Source: an uncultured Planctomycetia bacterium (GTDB taxonomy: Bacteria; Omnitrophota; Gorgyraeia; Duberdicusellales; 4484-171). Taken from it: DNA of 42,900 bases. The DNA lies in assembly GCA_964463445.1 (NCBI GenBank), contig CAYXBX010000001.1, positions 1-42,900 of the forward strand, written 5' to 3'. Made by a program: the position numbers and the translations under genes. The notes below the pieces were generated by a model that saw only the letters and a list, made by a program, of their open reading frames with translations, was not told where the DNA came from and did not search any database. Shown piece by piece: positions 33,428 to 41,024 of the stretch. Position 1 is the stretch's first letter, and every line of letters starts with the position of its first letter.

Positions 33428-33500
33428 GCGCCCGTAGCTCAAAAGGACAGAGCGCAGGCCTCCTAAGCCTGATGTGGCCGTTCGATTCGGCCCGGGCGCA
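33428..33500 (+). tRNA. tRNA-Arg (anticodon CCT)
   Basis: Hand-folded cloverleaf. Acceptor stem GCGCCCG/CGGGCGC, D stem GCTC/GAGC, anticodon stem CAGGC/GCCTG with loop CTCCTAA, T arm GGCCG-TTCGATT-CGGCC, discriminator A. No encoded CCA. Confidence 0.9.
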
Positions 33501-35075: not shown

Positions 35076-35094
35076 GTAGAAAAGGTGATTTAAG

Positions 35095-35125
35095 CCCCGT
35101 GCATATTATATGCACGGGGTTTTTT
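35095..35125 (+). terminator. Rho-independent terminator after the porin gene
   Basis: Perfect 11-bp stem CCCCGTGCATA/TATGCACGGGG (35095-35119) with a 3-nt loop, followed by TTTTTT. Confidence 0.9.
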
Positions 35126-35126
35126 A

Positions 35127-35154
35127 TTGATTATTTTACTATCTAAAGTATAAT
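35127..35154 (+). promoter_or_regulatory. Putative sigma-70 promoter of the six-gene operon
   Basis: TTGATT (35127-35132), 16-nt spacer, consensus TATAAT (35149-35154). It lies 24 nt upstream of the ATG, which is preceded by AAGGAGG. Confidence 0.6.
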
Positions 35155-35177
35155 ATTATATTCAAAAAGGAGGCTCT

Positions 35178-35510
35178 ATGGGTGATGAGTTAAAGTTGCC
35201 TGATGAAGAAATAAGAGAAGGAGCAGCATTTGCGGCTCTATCTTATGTATTTTTTCTGTGGATTTTAGCTTTTATCTTTAAGAAAGATAATCGCTTTGCT
35301 CATTTTCATGCCCGTCAGGGGTTGGTTATTTTTGTCTTAGAGATTATATGTTTTTTTATGCCTTTTATACCTATTCTGGGAGGTTTGCTGTACGTTTGGG
35401 GATGGATTCTTCTTGTTGTTGCCTCTTTATACGGGGTTTATTCTTCTTTAACAGGAAAACTATGCCATATGCCTTTTATTACCCGTATTGCCTCTAAAAT
35501 GGTGATTTAA
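35178..35510 (+). CDS. Small membrane protein, DUF4870-like
   Basis: 110 aa with 3 predicted TM helices. The motif NRFAHFHARQGL after the first TM is typical of that family as I recall it. Confidence 0.7.
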   Translation: MGDELKLPDEEIREGAAFAALSYVFFLWILAFIFKKDNRFAHFHARQGLVIFVLEIICFFMPFIPILGGLLYVWGWILLVVASLYGVYSSLTGKLCHMPFITRIASKMVI

Positions 35511-35511
35511 T

Positions 35512-36210
35512 ATGAAAAGAAACAAAAGCAAATTTATATCCTTAGAAAAGAACAAACATATATTTGGCAATGACTTTATAAGAGGAGACACCTGGCGGGT
35601 TTTCCGTATTATGAGTGAGTTTGTAGAAGGCTTTGAGGGGCTTTCTGATATAAAAAAAGGCGTTGTATTTTTTGGTTCAAAAAGATCCCCTTCTACCAGT
35701 TCCTTTTACAAATTAGCCCGTAAAACCGCATATATTCTTACTAAGAAAGGGTATACTGTAATGACAGGTGCAGGCCCGGGCATAATGGAAGCTGCTAACC
35801 GAGGGGCAAAGGAGGCAGGTGGGACTTCTGTAGGGTTAAATATTCTTGTTCCTGAGCAGCAGGTTCCTAATAAGTTTGTTAATTACCTTTTGGAGTTCAG
35901 ATATTTCTTTGTGAGAAAAGTTATGTTTGTCAAATATTCCTGTGCCTTTGTGGTTTTTCCCGGAGGCTATGGCACTCTTGATGAGCTTTTTGAGGGGTTG
36001 GCCTTGGTTCAGACAGAAAGAATTCCTTCCTTTCCTATTATTCTTGTGGGTAAAAGTTTCTGGCGAGGTCTTTTAAGCTGGCTTAAGGAGACTTTGATAA
36101 AAGAAGGCACAATTGTTTCCTCTGATTTGTATTTATTTAAGGTTGTGGATACACCCGCTGAGGTTATAAACTCTATAAGTAGCTTTTACAGAAAGAAAAA
36201 GAAGCAGTGA
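35512..36210 (+). CDS. LOG-family protein (TIGR00730-type Rossmann fold; nucleotide 5'-monophosphate nucleosidase-like)
   Basis: 232 aa with TGAGPGIMEAANRGA and the LOG signature PGGYGTLDE. It starts 1 nt after the upstream stop. Confidence 0.85.
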   Translation: MKRNKSKFISLEKNKHIFGNDFIRGDTWRVFRIMSEFVEGFEGLSDIKKGVVFFGSKRSPSTSSFYKLARKTAYILTKKGYTVMTGAGPGIMEAANRGAKEAGGTSVGLNILVPEQQVPNKFVNYLLEFRYFFVRKVMFVKYSCAFVVFPGGYGTLDELFEGLALVQTERIPSFPIILVGKSFWRGLLSWLKETLIKEGTIVSSDLYLFKVVDTPAEVINSISSFYRKKKKQ

Positions 36211-36506
36211 AGGCTTTTTTAAGAGCGTGGTACAAATTTGATGTTGATGATATAAGGAATTCTCTTTTTGTAATAGGAGAACTAAGCGGAGAGTGTTTCT
36301 CCTGCCATAAAGTAGGTATAAGTATTGGAGAGAAAACCTGCCCTCAATGCAAAAAAGAGTTTAAGTTCATAGCTTTCAGAAGAAGAGCGGATTCTTCTGT
36401 GATAGAGCGTTTTCGCAAGAGGTATCCTAAAGAGGTGTTTGTTGACTTTGACGATTTTAAAAAAGCAGTAGGTAGAAGCTCTGCCCGCAAACTGCTTGAT
36501 ATTTAG
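36207..36506 (+). CDS. Hypothetical protein with CxxH...CxxC zinc-ribbon-like motif
   Basis: 99 aa. The GTG start overlaps the LOG stop (GTGA). CFSCHK...CPQCKK. I recognise no family. Confidence 0.55.
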   Translation: MKAFLRAWYKFDVDDIRNSLFVIGELSGECFSCHKVGISIGEKTCPQCKKEFKFIAFRRRADSSVIERFRKRYPKEVFVDFDDFKKAVGRSSARKLLDI

Positions 36507-36531
36507 TAGGTTTTTAAAAAAGGAGGAGAAA

Positions 36532-36930
36532 ATGAAAGCAGTAAAAGCACAGGAACTTTTCATAAAAGGTAAGAACAAAGTAGGTGCTTTGGCCGAATTA
36601 GCTAAGATAATTTCTTCTGGCGGCGTTAATATAAGAGCCATTTCTGCCTGGGCAGTTGGTGATGAGGCATTTTTTAGAATGCTTACTTCAGATAATGCCA
36701 AGACAAAAGAGTTATTAGCAAATAACGGGTATGCTTTTGAGGAGAAAGAGGTGGTTGTGGTTGAACTTGCGGATAAAATAGGCCAGCTTAGCTTGTTATC
36801 AGATAAATTAAAAGAAGCCAATATAGACTTAACTTATATTTATGGTACAACTTCTAAACCTGAGCATGAAGCAATACTTGTATTTTCTTCCAATGATAAT
36901 GATAAAGCAGTAGAGATTATCTCTTCCTAA
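36532..36930 (+). CDS. Tandem ACT-domain protein (small-molecule binding)
   Basis: Start taken at ATG 36532, 7 nt downstream of AGGAGGAG. Two ACT-like repeats of about 65 aa each (GKNKVGALAELAKIISSGGVNI and ADKIGQLSLLSDKLKEANIDL). Confidence 0.75.
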   Translation: MKAVKAQELFIKGKNKVGALAELAKIISSGGVNIRAISAWAVGDEAFFRMLTSDNAKTKELLANNGYAFEEKEVVVVELADKIGQLSLLSDKLKEANIDLTYIYGTTSKPEHEAILVFSSNDNDKAVEIISS

Positions 36931-36943
36931 CCTATCTTTTTAA

Positions 36944-38164
36944 ATGAGGTTATACTTTCCTCATAATTTCTTATGGGGTTCGAGTATCTCTAGTTATCAA
37001 ACCGAAGGTGGAAATATCTACAGTGACTGGTTTCTGTGGGAGAAAGAGCAAGGATTAGAACACGCAGGAGCTTCAGCCAATCATTATAAGTTTTTTAAGG
37101 AAGATATAGAGATTGCCTCTTCTTTATCTCATAATGCCTTTCGTTTTTCTCTGGAGTGGTCAAGAATTTACCCCCATAAAGACAGATTTAACGAAGTCGG
37201 CTTTAAGCATTATGAAGATGTCATAAGTACGCTTAAAAAGTACAATATAACGCCCGTTGTTACTTTACATCATTTTACCAATCCTATATGGTATACTAAA
37301 GAGGGCGGGTGGCTAAATCATAAACTTATAGATTATTTTTTGTGTTATGTAAGAAAAGCAGTCTCTCTATTAAAGGATAATGTAAAGTACTGGATAATTT
37401 TTAATGAGCCTGTGGTGTATGTTTATAATGGCTTCTTAGAAGGCATATGGCCTCCAGGGTTAAAATCCACGAAGGAAGCTTTGCGTGCCTTAAGGAATAT
37501 CTTAAGAGCCTACATTTTATCTTATCAAGAGATAAAGAGGATATACGCAGATAAAAAATCTTTTCTCTCCATAGCAAAGAATATGAGAGTGTTTATTCCC
37601 TGTTTTTATTTAAACTTTGGGCAGAACAATCTTTTTTCTTTTATAAGAAGCCGTTTCTTCAACTTCTATGTGCTGGATTATTTATACAAGAATAGATGCC
37701 TTGATTTTATTGGTTTAAATTACTATTGCGGGGAATTTACAAAAGCTAATTTTTCCCTCTGGGGCAGAGAATGCACAGACGCTCATCACAAACTTAAGAG
37801 GAATGATTTGGGATGGCTTGTTTTTCCTTCTGGCCTGTATAATTTGCTTGTTAGGCTAAGAAATTATAATCTGCCTATAGTTATAACTGAAAACGGAACA
37901 GTCACCCCCCTCGATGAAGAGTACGCCTCGTTTATGATTTCTCACATAGAGAGCGTAGCGAAAGCCATTAATGATGGAGTGGACGTTAGGGGGTATTTCT
38001 GGTGGTCTCTCCTTGACAATTTTGAGTGGGATAAAGGTTACAGCTGTAGATTTGGGTTAGTAGACGTTGATTTTAACAATTTTTCAAGGAAAATAAAGCC
38101 TTTTGCCTTAAAGTACAGAGATATATGCAGGAATAATTTTATAGACATAGAGAATGTTGACTGA
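36944..38164 (+). CDS. Glycoside hydrolase family 1 beta-glucosidase, cytoplasmic
   Basis: 406 aa with FPHNFLWGSSISSYQTEGG, acid/base NEP (IFNEPVVY) and nucleophile ITENG. No signal peptide. Confidence 0.88.
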   Translation: MRLYFPHNFLWGSSISSYQTEGGNIYSDWFLWEKEQGLEHAGASANHYKFFKEDIEIASSLSHNAFRFSLEWSRIYPHKDRFNEVGFKHYEDVISTLKKYNITPVVTLHHFTNPIWYTKEGGWLNHKLIDYFLCYVRKAVSLLKDNVKYWIIFNEPVVYVYNGFLEGIWPPGLKSTKEALRALRNILRAYILSYQEIKRIYADKKSFLSIAKNMRVFIPCFYLNFGQNNLFSFIRSRFFNFYVLDYLYKNRCLDFIGLNYYCGEFTKANFSLWGRECTDAHHKLKRNDLGWLVFPSGLYNLLVRLRNYNLPIVITENGTVTPLDEEYASFMISHIESVAKAINDGVDVRGYFWWSLLDNFEWDKGYSCRFGLVDVDFNNFSRKIKPFALKYRDICRNNFIDIENVD

Positions 38165-39998
38165 AGAGATAATATCTGCCTTTTCTCCCTTTAACCGTCT
38201 TAAAAAGAGCCAGGTTAAAGAGCTTCTTAATATCTCTTCTCTTAGAGAATACAAGAAGGGAGAAATAATCTATCGTGAGGGAGAAAACCCCGGATATTTC
38301 TATTTTCTTGTTAAAGGAAGAGTTGTTGCTATTTCGTCCATTGAAGGAAGAGAACGTGAGATAGAGCTTATAAAGAAGGGGACTCCTTTTGGCATCATCT
38401 CTCTTTTTACTAAAGATCCCCACTCTGTTACGACTAAGGCCATTGAGAATTGCCTTATTGTTGTTATAAGAGAGGATAAGTTTAGGAATTTTGTAGAGAA
38501 AAGTCCGTTTCTTGCCTTCTATTTTTCTCAGGTTCTTTCCAGGAGAGTAAAGAAACGAGCAGACAGGCCGAAGAGAATATTTAAATCCACCGGTATTGTT
38601 TCCATCTTGGACGGCGATTATATGCAGTTGTTCTCTGTGGTAATTGAGCTGGCAGGCCTTCTTAGTCTGCACAATAAAAAGGAAGTTATTGTTGTAGAGG
38701 CGTCATCTTCTGGAAGTTTTGTACTTCCTGGGGTAGTGGGTGAGAATGTAGATACTTTTAATCTTGATGGGGAATTTAGAGAAGACTTATCAGTAAGAAA
38801 GATAAAAGGAGTAAATTTCTTGTGTCTAAAGATGGATACAACTTTTAAAGATGAGTTGTTTTCCTTTGGCAACTTTCTGTTAGAGAACTACCATTTTATT
38901 TTCTATATTATCCGCAAGGAAGATATCGATTACTGGCTTACCGTTTTTAATGTTGTTAATCACATTTATATTTTGTGTAACCGGCTGGATAAAGATGTTT
39001 TTCTTTCTAAAAAGATTAAGAGCATAACAGATAAATTTAAGTACATAGAAAAGACAGTAAGAGTGATTTTGACGGATAGAGATGGCTATCCAGAGGTTGG
39101 CCAGGCTCGTAAACATAGAGACGAAGAGATTGTTATTTTAGGCAAAAGAGGGCACAAAGATTACAAAAAGAGATTGGGGCATCTGGAAAGAGTTTTAGCA
39201 GAAAAGACCTTAGGATTAGCTTTGGGCAGCGGGGGAGCATATGGTCTTGCTCATATAGGAGTTCTTAAGGCTATTGCTGAAAGCAATGTGCCTTTGGATA
39301 TGGTATGCGGTTCAAGTATTGGTTCGGTTATTGCAGCGATGTGGGCATTAGGTTTTTCTTTTAAAGATATGGGCACGGCAGTTGATTTACTCAGCAGGAG
39401 AATAAAATTGTTTTCTTTCACATCTTTTACCTTCCCCTTTAGAGGCATAGTAAAAGCGAGGCGGCTGGAAGGTGTATTTAAAGAAATATTTGGCAGACGT
39501 TCATTTAAAGACGTAGTCTGTCCTTTGGCGGTGGTTGCTTTTAATTTTAAGAAACGTCAGATAGTTGCCATAGATGAGGGGCTAATTTATAAGGCTGTAA
39601 GCGCAAGCTGTGCTATGCCGGGGATATTTGAGCCTGTTGTCTTTAATAATGAGATGTTTCTTGACGGAGGAGTGTTAAGCCCTCTTCCTACAAAGATACT
39701 TCTTCAGTTTGATATAAAGAAGATAGTGGCTGCAAACGTTACTCCTCGCCGCGAAGAAATCCGCAATGTTTATCGTAAAAAGAGTATTTTTAATGTGTTT
39801 GATTTCATCTTTGGCAGCATAGAAACTATGCAGCAGGAATTTATAAGAGGGTCTTTGGATATTTCCGATGTAGTTATACATCCTGATTTAGGAGATTTGA
39901 GCTGGACTGATTTTAGCGCTAAAGACGAATTTATAAAGAGAGGATACGAAGCTACTTTAAGAGTTCTTCCTCAGATTAAAGAACTTCTTTCTGGTTGA
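38154..39998 (+). CDS. cNMP-binding-like domain / central P-loop-less ParA-like region / patatin-like phospholipase
   Basis: 614 aa. The N-terminal CAP/CNB-type beta-roll (GEIIYREGENPGYFYFLVKGRV) has a degenerate phosphate-binding cassette. The patatin domain has oxyanion GSGGAYG, GxSxG as GSSIG (Ser388) and DGG (Asp504). It overlaps the GH1 gene by 11 nt. Confidence 0.85.
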   Translation: MLTEEIISAFSPFNRLKKSQVKELLNISSLREYKKGEIIYREGENPGYFYFLVKGRVVAISSIEGREREIELIKKGTPFGIISLFTKDPHSVTTKAIENCLIVVIREDKFRNFVEKSPFLAFYFSQVLSRRVKKRADRPKRIFKSTGIVSILDGDYMQLFSVVIELAGLLSLHNKKEVIVVEASSSGSFVLPGVVGENVDTFNLDGEFREDLSVRKIKGVNFLCLKMDTTFKDELFSFGNFLLENYHFIFYIIRKEDIDYWLTVFNVVNHIYILCNRLDKDVFLSKKIKSITDKFKYIEKTVRVILTDRDGYPEVGQARKHRDEEIVILGKRGHKDYKKRLGHLERVLAEKTLGLALGSGGAYGLAHIGVLKAIAESNVPLDMVCGSSIGSVIAAMWALGFSFKDMGTAVDLLSRRIKLFSFTSFTFPFRGIVKARRLEGVFKEIFGRRSFKDVVCPLAVVAFNFKKRQIVAIDEGLIYKAVSASCAMPGIFEPVVFNNEMFLDGGVLSPLPTKILLQFDIKKIVAANVTPRREEIRNVYRKKSIFNVFDFIFGSIETMQQEFIRGSLDISDVVIHPDLGDLSWTDFSAKDEFIKRGYEATLRVLPQIKELLSG

Positions 39999-40001
39999 TG
40001 T

Positions 40002-41024
40002 TTAGTTAATCATCACTACAGAATTCTTCCCGCCGAAAGCATCGTCTTCCTGGAGATTATTCGAGGGGTCATTTATCCATCTTCCATCCGCTATAAACTT
40101 ATAGCTGTATTTTCCTTTCTTAAGTGGCAAATCGATAGCCCAGGTATCGTTGTCTACTTTCTTAAGCTTGTAATTATCACAAGGAGCCCAGTCATTAAAT
40201 TCTCCTACCAGATAGACTTCTTTAAAATCTTTTCCTTTTAAGACGAACTTTACAAGACGTGGAGGGTGTGATATTTTTTCTATTTCCTGCGCAAGCTGGC
40301 GGTAATCTTGACTTCCACGTGAATCCTTTTTATACTCAAAGATACTTAAGCCGCTGGCAGCAGCCTCTCTAAGGTGAATATTGGTCCTGATTACGGTAGA
40401 TAAGAGAGCATTGCCAAAATATTCCTGGATTTTCTTATAGAATGATTGGGAGAATTTAAAACGTCTATCTAACTGAGTGAGGAGGTAGTGTATTTGAGGA
40501 GCTACTTTCTTATGTTCGTACAGTATTTTTATAATATTGTTTAAGTTCTCTACGCCTTTGAGAGAGAGCTCACATACCCCAATAGGGACAATAATATAAC
40601 TGCTTGATACTAAAGCACTTAGGGTAAGAACTCCCAGATTAGGGGGGCAATCTATAATGCAATATTCAAATGCTGCTTCGTATTTGTTTAGTGCGTTTGA
40701 AAGCACATCCAACTTATTCTTGTGTTCTATTAGTGATTGTTCGACGGCGCTTAAGCCAATACTGGAGGGTAACACATAGAGATTGTTGGCACGGTTTGTA
40801 AGATAACTGTTATAATCAAAAGGACGGTTGTTTATAATATTATCAAAAAAGTCAGAGGAAGTGTATTTGGGTTTTATTCCTAAAGAGAATGTAGCGTGTG
40901 CCTGGGGATCTAAATCTGCCATAAGAACGCGTCTACCCCTATTGGCTAAGGCGTAGGCTAAATTTACTGCTGTAGTTGTCTTACCGCAGCCTCCTTTCTG
41001 GTTAATCAGAGATATTATAATCAT
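40002..41024 (-). CDS. ParA/MinD-family ATPase fused to a C-terminal AMPK-beta/CBM48-type glycan-binding domain
   Basis: 340 aa with deviant Walker A and signature Lys (NQKGGCGKTT). The C-terminal 85 aa are VKFVLKGKDFKEVYLVGEFNDW...YSYKFIADGRWINDP...GGKNSVVMI. The GGAGG SD overlaps the upstream gene's last sense codons, directly abutting its TAA stop. Confidence 0.85.
   Translation of the reverse strand: MIIISLINQKGGCGKTTTAVNLAYALANRGRRVLMADLDPQAHATFSLGIKPKYTSSDFFDNIINNRPFDYNSYLTNRANNLYVLPSSIGLSAVEQSLIEHKNKLDVLSNALNKYEAAFEYCIIDCPPNLGVLTLSALVSSSYIIVPIGVCELSLKGVENLNNIIKILYEHKKVAPQIHYLLTQLDRRFKFSQSFYKKIQEYFGNALLSTVIRTNIHLREAAASGLSIFEYKKDSRGSQDYRQLAQEIEKISHPPRLVKFVLKGKDFKEVYLVGEFNDWAPCDNYKLKKVDNDTWAIDLPLKKGKYSYKFIADGRWINDPSNNLQEDDAFGGKNSVVMIN

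Follow-up and report, generated by a model that had tools for sequence, protein, structure and literature searches.

Comparative analysis of a 42,900-nt window (positions 1 to 42,900 of contig CAYXBX010000001.1, from which all coordinates below are counted) indicated that a run of six + strand genes, named g1 to g6 here, is a composite of two modules. The first comprises a small membrane protein (g1), a LOG phosphoribohydrolase (g2) and an orphan Zn-ribbon protein (g3), and the second a tandem ACT protein (g4), a GH1 beta-glycosidase (g5) and a three-domain patatin lipase (g6). Within the second module, GH1 and the lipase appear to be a genuinely coupled functional pair, kept through relocations and lost together, and we consider it somewhat better than an even bet that the coupling serves, most plausibly, the turnover of membrane glycolipid. 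The window comes from a Candidatus Omnitrophota metagenome-assembled genome (MAG) of 1.03 Mb that is 87% complete (G000). A first-pass annotation of this DNA had described the six genes as one self-contained unit, a view that did not survive comparison with relatives: LOG is separable from the rest and conserved synteny runs past the proposed boundaries.

All six open reading frames (ORFs) were found in the window at the positions first claimed for them, with gaps of exactly 1, −4, 25, 13 and −11 nt. The domain calls were likewise confirmed, with the qualification that the name DUF4870 for g1 is tentative, since the match falls below the curated cut-off. The features, including two signals upstream of g1, are as follows.

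35092..35122, + strand: intrinsic terminator closing the upstream porin gene (14-bp stem, 7 GC pairs, T-run)
35127..35154, + strand: sigma-70-type promoter, TTGATT-16-TATAAT (10/12 match)
35178..35510, + strand: g1, 110-aa small membrane protein with ~3 transmembrane (TM) helices, DUF4870/TIC20-like (Pfam, sub-cut-off)
35512..36210, + strand: g2, type-II LOG (TIGR00730) phosphoribohydrolase (PF03641 121.9 bits, TIGR00730 140.6 bits)
36207..36506, + strand: g3, orphan 99-aa Zn-ribbon protein (invariant C30, C33, C45 and C48)
36532..36930, + strand: g4, stand-alone tandem ACT (ACT_8) protein (PF01842 and PF19571 above cut-off)
36944..38164, + strand: g5, 406-aa cytoplasmic GH1 beta-glycosidase, BGPh type (PF00232)
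38154..39998, + strand: g6, 614-aa lipase, cNMP-like at ~1-130, ParA/MinD-like at ~146-330 and patatin at ~350-614 (Pfam, AF2)

The six proteins were located in 40 relatives from the same genus, family, order and class, their neighbourhoods were read, and 65 species-level loci were scored. Because many contigs are short, gaps in assembly may account for a few of the apparent absences, and G035 was excluded for that reason. Layouts are written with D for the DUF4870-like protein, L for LOG, Z for the Zn-ribbon protein, A for ACT, G for GH1, P for the lipase and b for a basic protein. The coupling of GH1 and lipase is the strongest pattern in these loci. In 55 of the 61 evaluable species GH1 is the gene directly 5' of the lipase and runs in its direction; in one further species a 1.1-kb gap lies between the two. 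The pair is intact across at least four flanking contexts, which include a DUF4912-GH57-GH57-GH57(-DUF2934) cluster, a UvrD helicase and D-L-Z. In the clade of the window the two genes overlap or abut, with gaps of −11, −1, 0, 2 and 3 nt. Among 40 scorable genomes, 30 encode both proteins, seven neither, three GH1 only and none the lipase only (Fisher p = 6e-6, uncorrected for phylogeny). The seven double absences are spread over five families and, within family f1, over separate genera. Joint deletion of GH1 and lipase is visible in place in G020, G028 and G029, where D-L-Z and ParA-CBM48 still flank the gap; LOG has been deleted alone, with D and Z still adjoining, in G024 and G017. The adjacency in ~90% of 61 species, together with the joint loss, points to a lineage-specific and probably lipid-related function that is undescribed in the literature we searched.

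The remaining members of the second module are less constant. Of 51 evaluable loci, 35 have ACT directly 5' of GH1, and an exported DUF3108-like protein, which had no PDB sequence match, is encoded 3' of the lipase in 31 loci. The ACT protein g4 scored above the Pfam cut-offs (ACT 43.1 bits versus 27; ACT_8 36.9 versus 23.5) and weakly matches PDB 2F06.

The joined layout of the window recurs in relatives and is thus not unique to this genome: other members of the genus share the gene order, as do two more genera of the family, and in two sister families it occurs with substitutions. Uniqueness to this genome, which the first-pass annotation had named as a refuting condition, was therefore not borne out. 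The full D-L-Z-A-G-P order was found in G001, G002, G011 and G012, and without ACT in G003. In the sister families the order is D-(b)-L-Z-(HbpS-like, sometimes with ACT)-G-P in G030, G032, G033, G026 and G034, and it is rearranged in G027. The sister-family block adds a lysine-rich protein of ~130 aa between DUF4870 and LOG (L055, L056, L057, L038, L058, L059 and L139); at the same loci an exported HbpS-like/GlcG protein (PF03928) occupies the ACT position, and G029 and G034 hold both ACT and HbpS-like genes.

Nevertheless, the two modules are found apart in much of the sample. ACT-GH1-lipase occurs without LOG or the Zn-ribbon gene within +/-8 kb in ~12 of 20 relatives and is located away from D-L-Z in most of family f1; of the 55 loci in which GH1 adjoins the lipase, only 9 contain LOG as well, and the presence of LOG is independent of that of the lipase (odds ratio 0.73, p = 1). 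In the patatin tree, the deepest split has the D-L-Z context on either side, and the f1 clade has it at its base; the other contexts are nested within one derived clade of 36 species. The position of D-L-Z on both sides of the deepest split suggests that the joined layout, which appears ancestral, was later broken. Conserved synteny also overruns the proposed unit, with the porin gene upstream and ParA-CBM48, a 220-aa membrane protein and S21-RRM downstream, and adjacency alone therefore defines no pathway. Given the ancestral layout and the extended synteny, retained synteny is the best account of why the two modules are neighbours: the side-by-side modules would be a remnant of the ancestral order rather than a six-step pathway, and module 1 would be a housekeeping-type block, usually behind the porin gene, whose function is independent of module 2. 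In sum, a compact single-promoter run in a streamlined genome should not be taken for one pathway without comparative evidence.

The sequence of g5 is closest to that of a GH1 enzyme with a preference for hydrophobic aglycones. Its PF00232 score is 262.5 bits (cut-off 22.6), and the catalytic motifs FNEP, with the acid/base Glu, and ITENG, with the nucleophile Glu, align to the same motifs of PDB 1VFF, the closest solved structure (299 bits, E 4.8e-88, 39% identity, in a single stretch of residues 1-400 against 1-408). The next natural match reaches 214 bits in more than one partial stretch, and 8IN1, at 253.5 bits, covers residues 5-195 only. By eye only, the N-terminus has no apparent signal peptide, and MRLYFPHNFLWG aligns to 1VFF from residue 1. 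The protein of 1VFF is BGPh, a membrane-bound GH1 of Pyrococcus horikoshii that prefers long-alkyl beta-glucosides and is reported to bind membranes via a hydrophobic mound; a search for steryl glucosidases set out from this enzyme (PMC4687101). The g5 protein probably falls in a BGPh-like clade favouring hydrophobic aglycones.

The AlphaFold2 (AF2) model of g6 (predicted local distance difference test (pLDDT) 84, predicted template modelling score (pTM) 0.84) has three domains, of which the central ParA/MinD-like domain was absent from the first-pass annotation. The patatin domain (PF01734, 104.6 bits) has residues that are invariant in 55 orthologues: G386-S388-G390 (GSSIG), D504-G505-G506 (DGG) and the oxyanion loop G354/G358/G360. 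Foldseek matched this domain to PlpD (E 1e-18) and to CapE/CapV (1e-12 to 1e-14). The cyclic nucleotide monophosphate-like (cNMP-like) domain keeps the CNB fold (PF00027, 74 bits; Foldseek to CRP/PKG 1e-9), while its phosphate-binding cassette is degenerate: it reads GIISL...PHSVT, with the canonical Glu (GELAL) and Arg (RSA/RTA) replaced and an invariant His90. In the central domain the ParA fold is retained and the P-loop has decayed, with DGDYMQLF where Walker A (K)GGxGK(T/S) is expected; many orthologues keep SGKT(T/S)Y, and AAA_31 and CbiA matches were obtained in 5 and 3 of 15, respectively. Only Omnitrophota-type MAGs yielded relatives of g6 over its full length, and proteins of other phyla match the patatin domain alone.

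Gating of the lipase by cAMP or cGMP as a general mechanism was considered and rejected, on the grounds of the degenerate cassette and of a search in which class III cyclases were found in just 8 of 41 genomes (other cyclase classes were not searched). A class III cyclase of ~760-770 aa is encoded in G001, G002, G011, G012, G032 and G015, mainly in lineages with the joined six-gene layout; it is rare elsewhere, and none was found in G000 (87% complete).

We propose that GH1 and the lipase act on the same glycolipid. The BGPh-like GH1 would remove a beta-linked hexose from a lipid-like aglycone at the cytoplasmic membrane face, and the patatin domain of g6 would cleave off ester-linked acyl chains. 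The likely substrate would be a beta-glycosyl-diacylglycerol made by GT28 enzymes of the MGDG-synthase type, and the two enzymes would jointly recycle or remodel glycoglycerolipid. A glycolipid substrate is suggested by three observations that point the same way, namely the hydrophobic-aglycone clade of the GH1, the intact patatin dyad and the universal presence of GT28. PF06925 (MGDG_synth) scored above the Pfam cut-off in 41 of 41 genomes, with one to three GT28 enzymes each, one example being G000:C63:4858-5322, and in only 2 of 14 control genomes, with some match in three (Bacillus subtilis, Deinococcus radiodurans and Methanocaldococcus jannaschii). GT28 enzymes invert, yielding beta-linked glycosyl-diacylglycerols, and this is the linkage that GH1 cleaves. 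The degenerate CNB domain may gate the lipase via a ligand other than a cNMP, as the replaced cassette Glu and Arg and the scarcity of class III cyclases suggest, and the ACT protein may be an additional small-molecule sensor. The first-pass annotation had offered glycolipid turnover, by GH1 plus patatin, as one of two readings of the six-gene unit; we retain it for the GH1-lipase pair, with ACT, and not for LOG, the Zn-ribbon protein or the membrane protein.

Several observations weigh against this proposal. MGDG_synth is also present in genomes without the GH1-lipase pair, and its presence in all 41 genomes thus supports the availability of the substrate but cannot separate genomes with the pair from those without it. 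The identity of g5 to BGPh is just 39%, and the physiological substrate of BGPh itself is not known. The Fisher test treats related genomes as independent. The lipase occurs without a nearby GH1 in five species (L066, L084, L092, L102 and L112), and G013, G021 and G034 keep ACT-GH1 with no lipase gene there, although G021 has a divergent copy on another contig. Finally, a frequent context of the pair is the GH57 glycogen cluster with ParA-CBM48, which could point to carbohydrate storage and not lipid. On the other side, three of the five species with a lipase but no GH1 have BamD-like and AsmA-like genes beside the lipase, which hints at an envelope-lipid role of this enzyme; in the clade that lacks GH1, the genes directly 5' of the lipase encode a BamD/YfiO-like lipoprotein and an AsmA-family protein of lipid transport (L066, L084, L112 and L104). 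The exported DUF3108-like protein of 31 loci likewise counts among the recurrent neighbours of envelope or lipid type that speak for a lipid substrate.

The carbohydrate context deserves separate description. In ~12 species, ACT-GH1-lipase comes straight after a co-directional array of DUF4912, GH57 branching enzyme, GH57 and GH57 4-alpha-glucanotransferase (and DUF2934), and the order continues with the DUF3108-like exported protein, convergent ParA-CBM48 and membrane protein genes and a radical SAM gene. Loci with this context are L070, L076, L077, L079, L085, L088, L089, L100, L118, L121 and L124, and the array is possibly a glycogen-centred super-cluster. A bolder version of the proposal, which we regard as unlikely though worth stating, is that ACT, GH1 and the three-domain lipase, with the DUF3108-like protein, form an Omnitrophota-specific system for the ligand-gated dismantling of beta-glycosyl-diacylglycerol, with the sugar fed to the GH57/ParA-CBM48 glycogen machinery. 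If true, this would tie the remodelling of membrane glycolipids to carbon storage in a way not described before, in bacteria that are ultra-small and may depend on a host. Omnitrophota are uncultivated and ultra-small, and their physiology is inferred almost wholly from genomes. The literature searched contained no bacterial operon of such a kind and no paper relevantly linking Omnitrophota with patatin or glycolipid turnover; GH1 and the three-domain lipase are two concrete enzymes for expression and assay.

The main rival to glycolipid turnover is that GH1 and the lipase are co-regulated in a carbon-storage or starvation regulon while acting on different substrates, with GH1 salvaging beta-glucosides or beta-glucan oligosaccharides, the patatin serving as an NTE-like (lyso)phospholipase or storage-lipid lipase and ACT sensing nutrients. 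This explanation, which we judge possible but distinctly the less probable, accounts for the ~12 species in which ACT-GH1-lipase follows the alpha-glucan GH57 cluster and faces ParA-CBM48, for the resemblance of the CNB-plus-patatin architecture to NTE/PNPLA6 and for the persistence of GH1 or the lipase alone in a few species. However, co-regulation alone rarely keeps strict adjacency over at least four relocations and joint deletion as well, and the GH57 context is limited to a derived subclade of the tree. BGPh-type GH1 enzymes are also poor on soluble disaccharides, as Matsui reportedly found in 2000. A more radical view is that no functional link exists at all and that every adjacency is residual synteny in slowly rearranging small genomes. 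The order from porin to S21-RRM is indeed conserved across the order, and these compact genomes have small gaps everywhere, but the flanks of GH1-lipase change repeatedly while the pair remains intact, at least five joint losses have occurred independently in different genera and families, and start and stop of the two genes overlap or abut in the window clade; we consider this view improbable.

Equally improbable, in our estimate, is that all six products belong to one pathway, whether glycolipid turnover that needs module 1 too or the processing of a glycosylated ribotide. At least three families retain the order of the six genes, f3 having the HbpS-like protein in place of ACT or in addition to it; this order looks ancestral, and in the window the genes share a promoter and are translationally coupled or nearly so. 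In contrast, the modules lie apart in most of f1, LOG is phyletically independent of the GH1-lipase pair, LOG was lost with D-Z kept and GH1 with lipase lost with D-L-Z kept, synteny passes the limits of the operon, and tight packing is normal here. The second reading of the first-pass annotation, in which, as in cytokinin metabolism, the same N6-modified base would be freed by LOG from the riboside monophosphate and by GH1 from an O-glucoside, found no support, because the two genes come apart freely and each is lost independently of the other. In its favour, g2 is an intact type-II LOG with ~50% identity to enzymes of shown phosphoribohydrolase activity, and plant GH1 enzymes deglucosylate cytokinins. 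Yet LOG and GH1 are apart in most relatives and were gained and lost separately, the GH1 is of BGPh-like type, a clade with a preference for hydrophobic aglycones, and the constant partner of GH1 is the lipase and not LOG, which leaves this reading with very little credence. We think it just as far-fetched that g6 is a nucleotide-activated abortive-infection lipase, that is, a CBASS/Pycsar-like effector, in a defence island. The patatin domain does match CapE/CapV structures and PADLOC phospholipase effectors, and the CNB domain matches effector models of the PycTIR type. Against this, the PADLOC matches are partial and at the level of domains only, no cyclase is encoded in or beside the cluster, the contact residues for cyclic phosphate are lost, and class III cyclases are absent from most carrier genomes. 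In addition, g6 is single-copy and vertically inherited (its tree matches the families) in a stable housekeeping context by ribosomal and porin genes. A CBASS/Pycsar identity of the cluster as a whole was likewise rejected, as PADLOC gave domain-level matches only and the cluster holds no CD-NTase or pyrimidine cyclase.

Whatever their division into modules, the six genes probably form one transcription unit. It would begin with the conserved promoter (35127-35154) and reach as far as 39998, the convergent gene end that we retain as its 3' limit. The claimed upstream terminator was borne out, with the hairpin now placed at 35092-35122, as was the near-consensus promoter, whose score is the top of the scanned region, tied with two other sites. 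L061 and L062 keep the terminator hairpin, of which L063 shows the 3' half, and the TTGATT...TATAAT pair also stands 5' of the g1 orthologue in L061-L064. The terminator, the promoter or both are thus retained before g1 in four relatives whose protein identity is just 42-95%, and this recurrence suggests that the signals are real. A strong Shine-Dalgarno (SD) sequence, AAAGGAGG, lies ahead of the g1 ATG; AAAGGAGG also precedes the g4 ATG, the orthologues of which begin at the identical MKAVKAQE, and g3 has a GTG start that overlaps the stop of LOG. Inside the cluster, neither promoter-like sites (27 versus 21.7 expected from shuffling) nor terminator-like sites (7 versus 6.3) exceeded chance, and the largest intergenic space is 25 nt. 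The tight gaps had been advanced as an argument for functionally linked products, an argument that fails here: the other co-directional gaps of the window number 41, with a median of 5 nt, and 31 of these do not exceed 25 nt, so that packing alone is uninformative on functional linkage.

For regulatory RNA, Rfam at a permissive threshold returned only a tRNA at 33428-33500 and a sub-threshold match on the terminator hairpin. The tRNA gene (66 bits) is flanked by the apt and porin genes. At the other end of the unit, 3 nt separate the stop of the lipase gene from that of the ParA-CBM48 gene, which converges on it (39996-40004); no terminator lies between the two stops, and this convergence is kept in many relatives.

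In module 1, g1 has three hydrophobic segments, and its orthologue lies 5' of LOG/Zn-ribbon throughout the order. Its Pfam scores are 20 bits for DUF4870 (cut-off 25) and 23 for TIC20 (28.6), and its name is tentative because both fall under the curated cut-offs. The best PDB matches of g2 are 5ZI9, 1WEK and 5WQ3 (E 1e-59 to 1e-63), in alignments that include the N-terminal extension. Its motif PGGYGTLDE has an Asp preceding the catalytic Glu, and the catalytic Arg lies 23 residues upstream, which fits the definition of a type-II LOG by Asp-Glu motif and Arg spacing (PMC5379747). Judged by these residues, g2 is a catalytically intact type-II LOG.

The Zn-ribbon protein g3 matched no Pfam family. 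A profile search among 1.84 billion representatives gave 97 clusters, none of them annotated, and a word-based search gave 14 close homologues, all nameless. The AF2 model is confident (pLDDT 88.6), and a fold search of the PDB found no relative of it (best E 0.25). The g3 orthologue adjoins LOG in nearly the whole order, usually in the layout porin-D-(b)-L-Z. At the two loci from which LOG is gone (L053 in G024 and L054 in G017), the DUF4870-like and Zn-ribbon genes are still neighbours, 150-210 nt apart. Since the D-Z pair survives deletion of LOG, the constant partner of the Zn-ribbon protein may be the g1-type membrane protein rather than LOG.

A few further observations concern the neighbourhood and the relatives. 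The porin orthologue of G001, the closest relative (L021, 12943-13590), matches just residues 1-130 and 384-434 of the window porin, which suggests that ~250 codons have been lost from within it or that it is a pseudogene. LOG/SLOG-like domains, some of them two or three in tandem, also occur inside giant open frames of relatives (27,261, 17,786, 8,051 and 4,244 aa; G033:C6:75859-77067, G025:C5:144901-149826, G039:C4:119299-119784 and G001:C45:1650-2867). These are giant proteins typical of Omnitrophota, here with nucleotide-processing-like modules. Contig L082 (JAIWAR010000008.1), filed under a Methanosarcinales archaeon MAG, carries a block of ACT-GH1-lipase-DUF3108 of the Omnitrophota type and is therefore probably mis-binned, and many binchicken MAGs labelled 'uncultured Planctomycetia' (TPA records) are clearly Omnitrophota relatives.

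Comparison with known systems shows both shared and distinct traits. The LOG protein resembles the type-IIa enzymes CgLOGII (5WQ3), TtLOGII (1WEK) and 5ZI9: identity to 5ZI9 is ~50% by eye, including the N-terminal helix, the motif PGGxGTxDE is present, and the catalytic Arg and Glu are equally spaced. In contrast, typical neighbours of type-II LOG genes are DapE, dihydropteroate synthase and GpgS (PMC5379747), whereas those of g2 encode the DUF4870-like membrane protein and the orphan Zn-ribbon protein. Plant patatin/galactolipid acyl hydrolases and glycolipid beta-glycosidases share with g5 and g6 the proposed logic of deacylation and deglycosylation of a glycosyl-diacylglycerol; the likeness is one of proposed logic only, as there is no orthology.

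BGPh and g5 have in common the short format of ~410-420 aa, the NEP/ITENG glutamates, the glycone motif NFEW and an alignment from end to end. They differ in that g5 is bacterial and of mesophilic type, with a BGPh-like membrane association that is predicted only, and in that g5 sits in a conserved pair with a lipase, a pairing not known for BGPh. For the patatin domain of g6 the best structural matches are PlpD and the CBASS proteins CapV and CapE, the latter two being ligand-activated lipases; unlike these, g6 lacks a partner cyclase and any part for secretion or autotransport, and it is core and vertically inherited. The overall architecture of g6 recalls NTE/PNPLA6, in which a CNB-like regulatory domain, probably no true cNMP sensor, likewise stands N-terminal to a patatin Ser-Asp hydrolase. 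Relative to NTE/PNPLA6, g6 has one CNB domain in place of three, dispenses with the N-terminal TM anchor and carries an inserted, decayed ParA/MinD-like domain.

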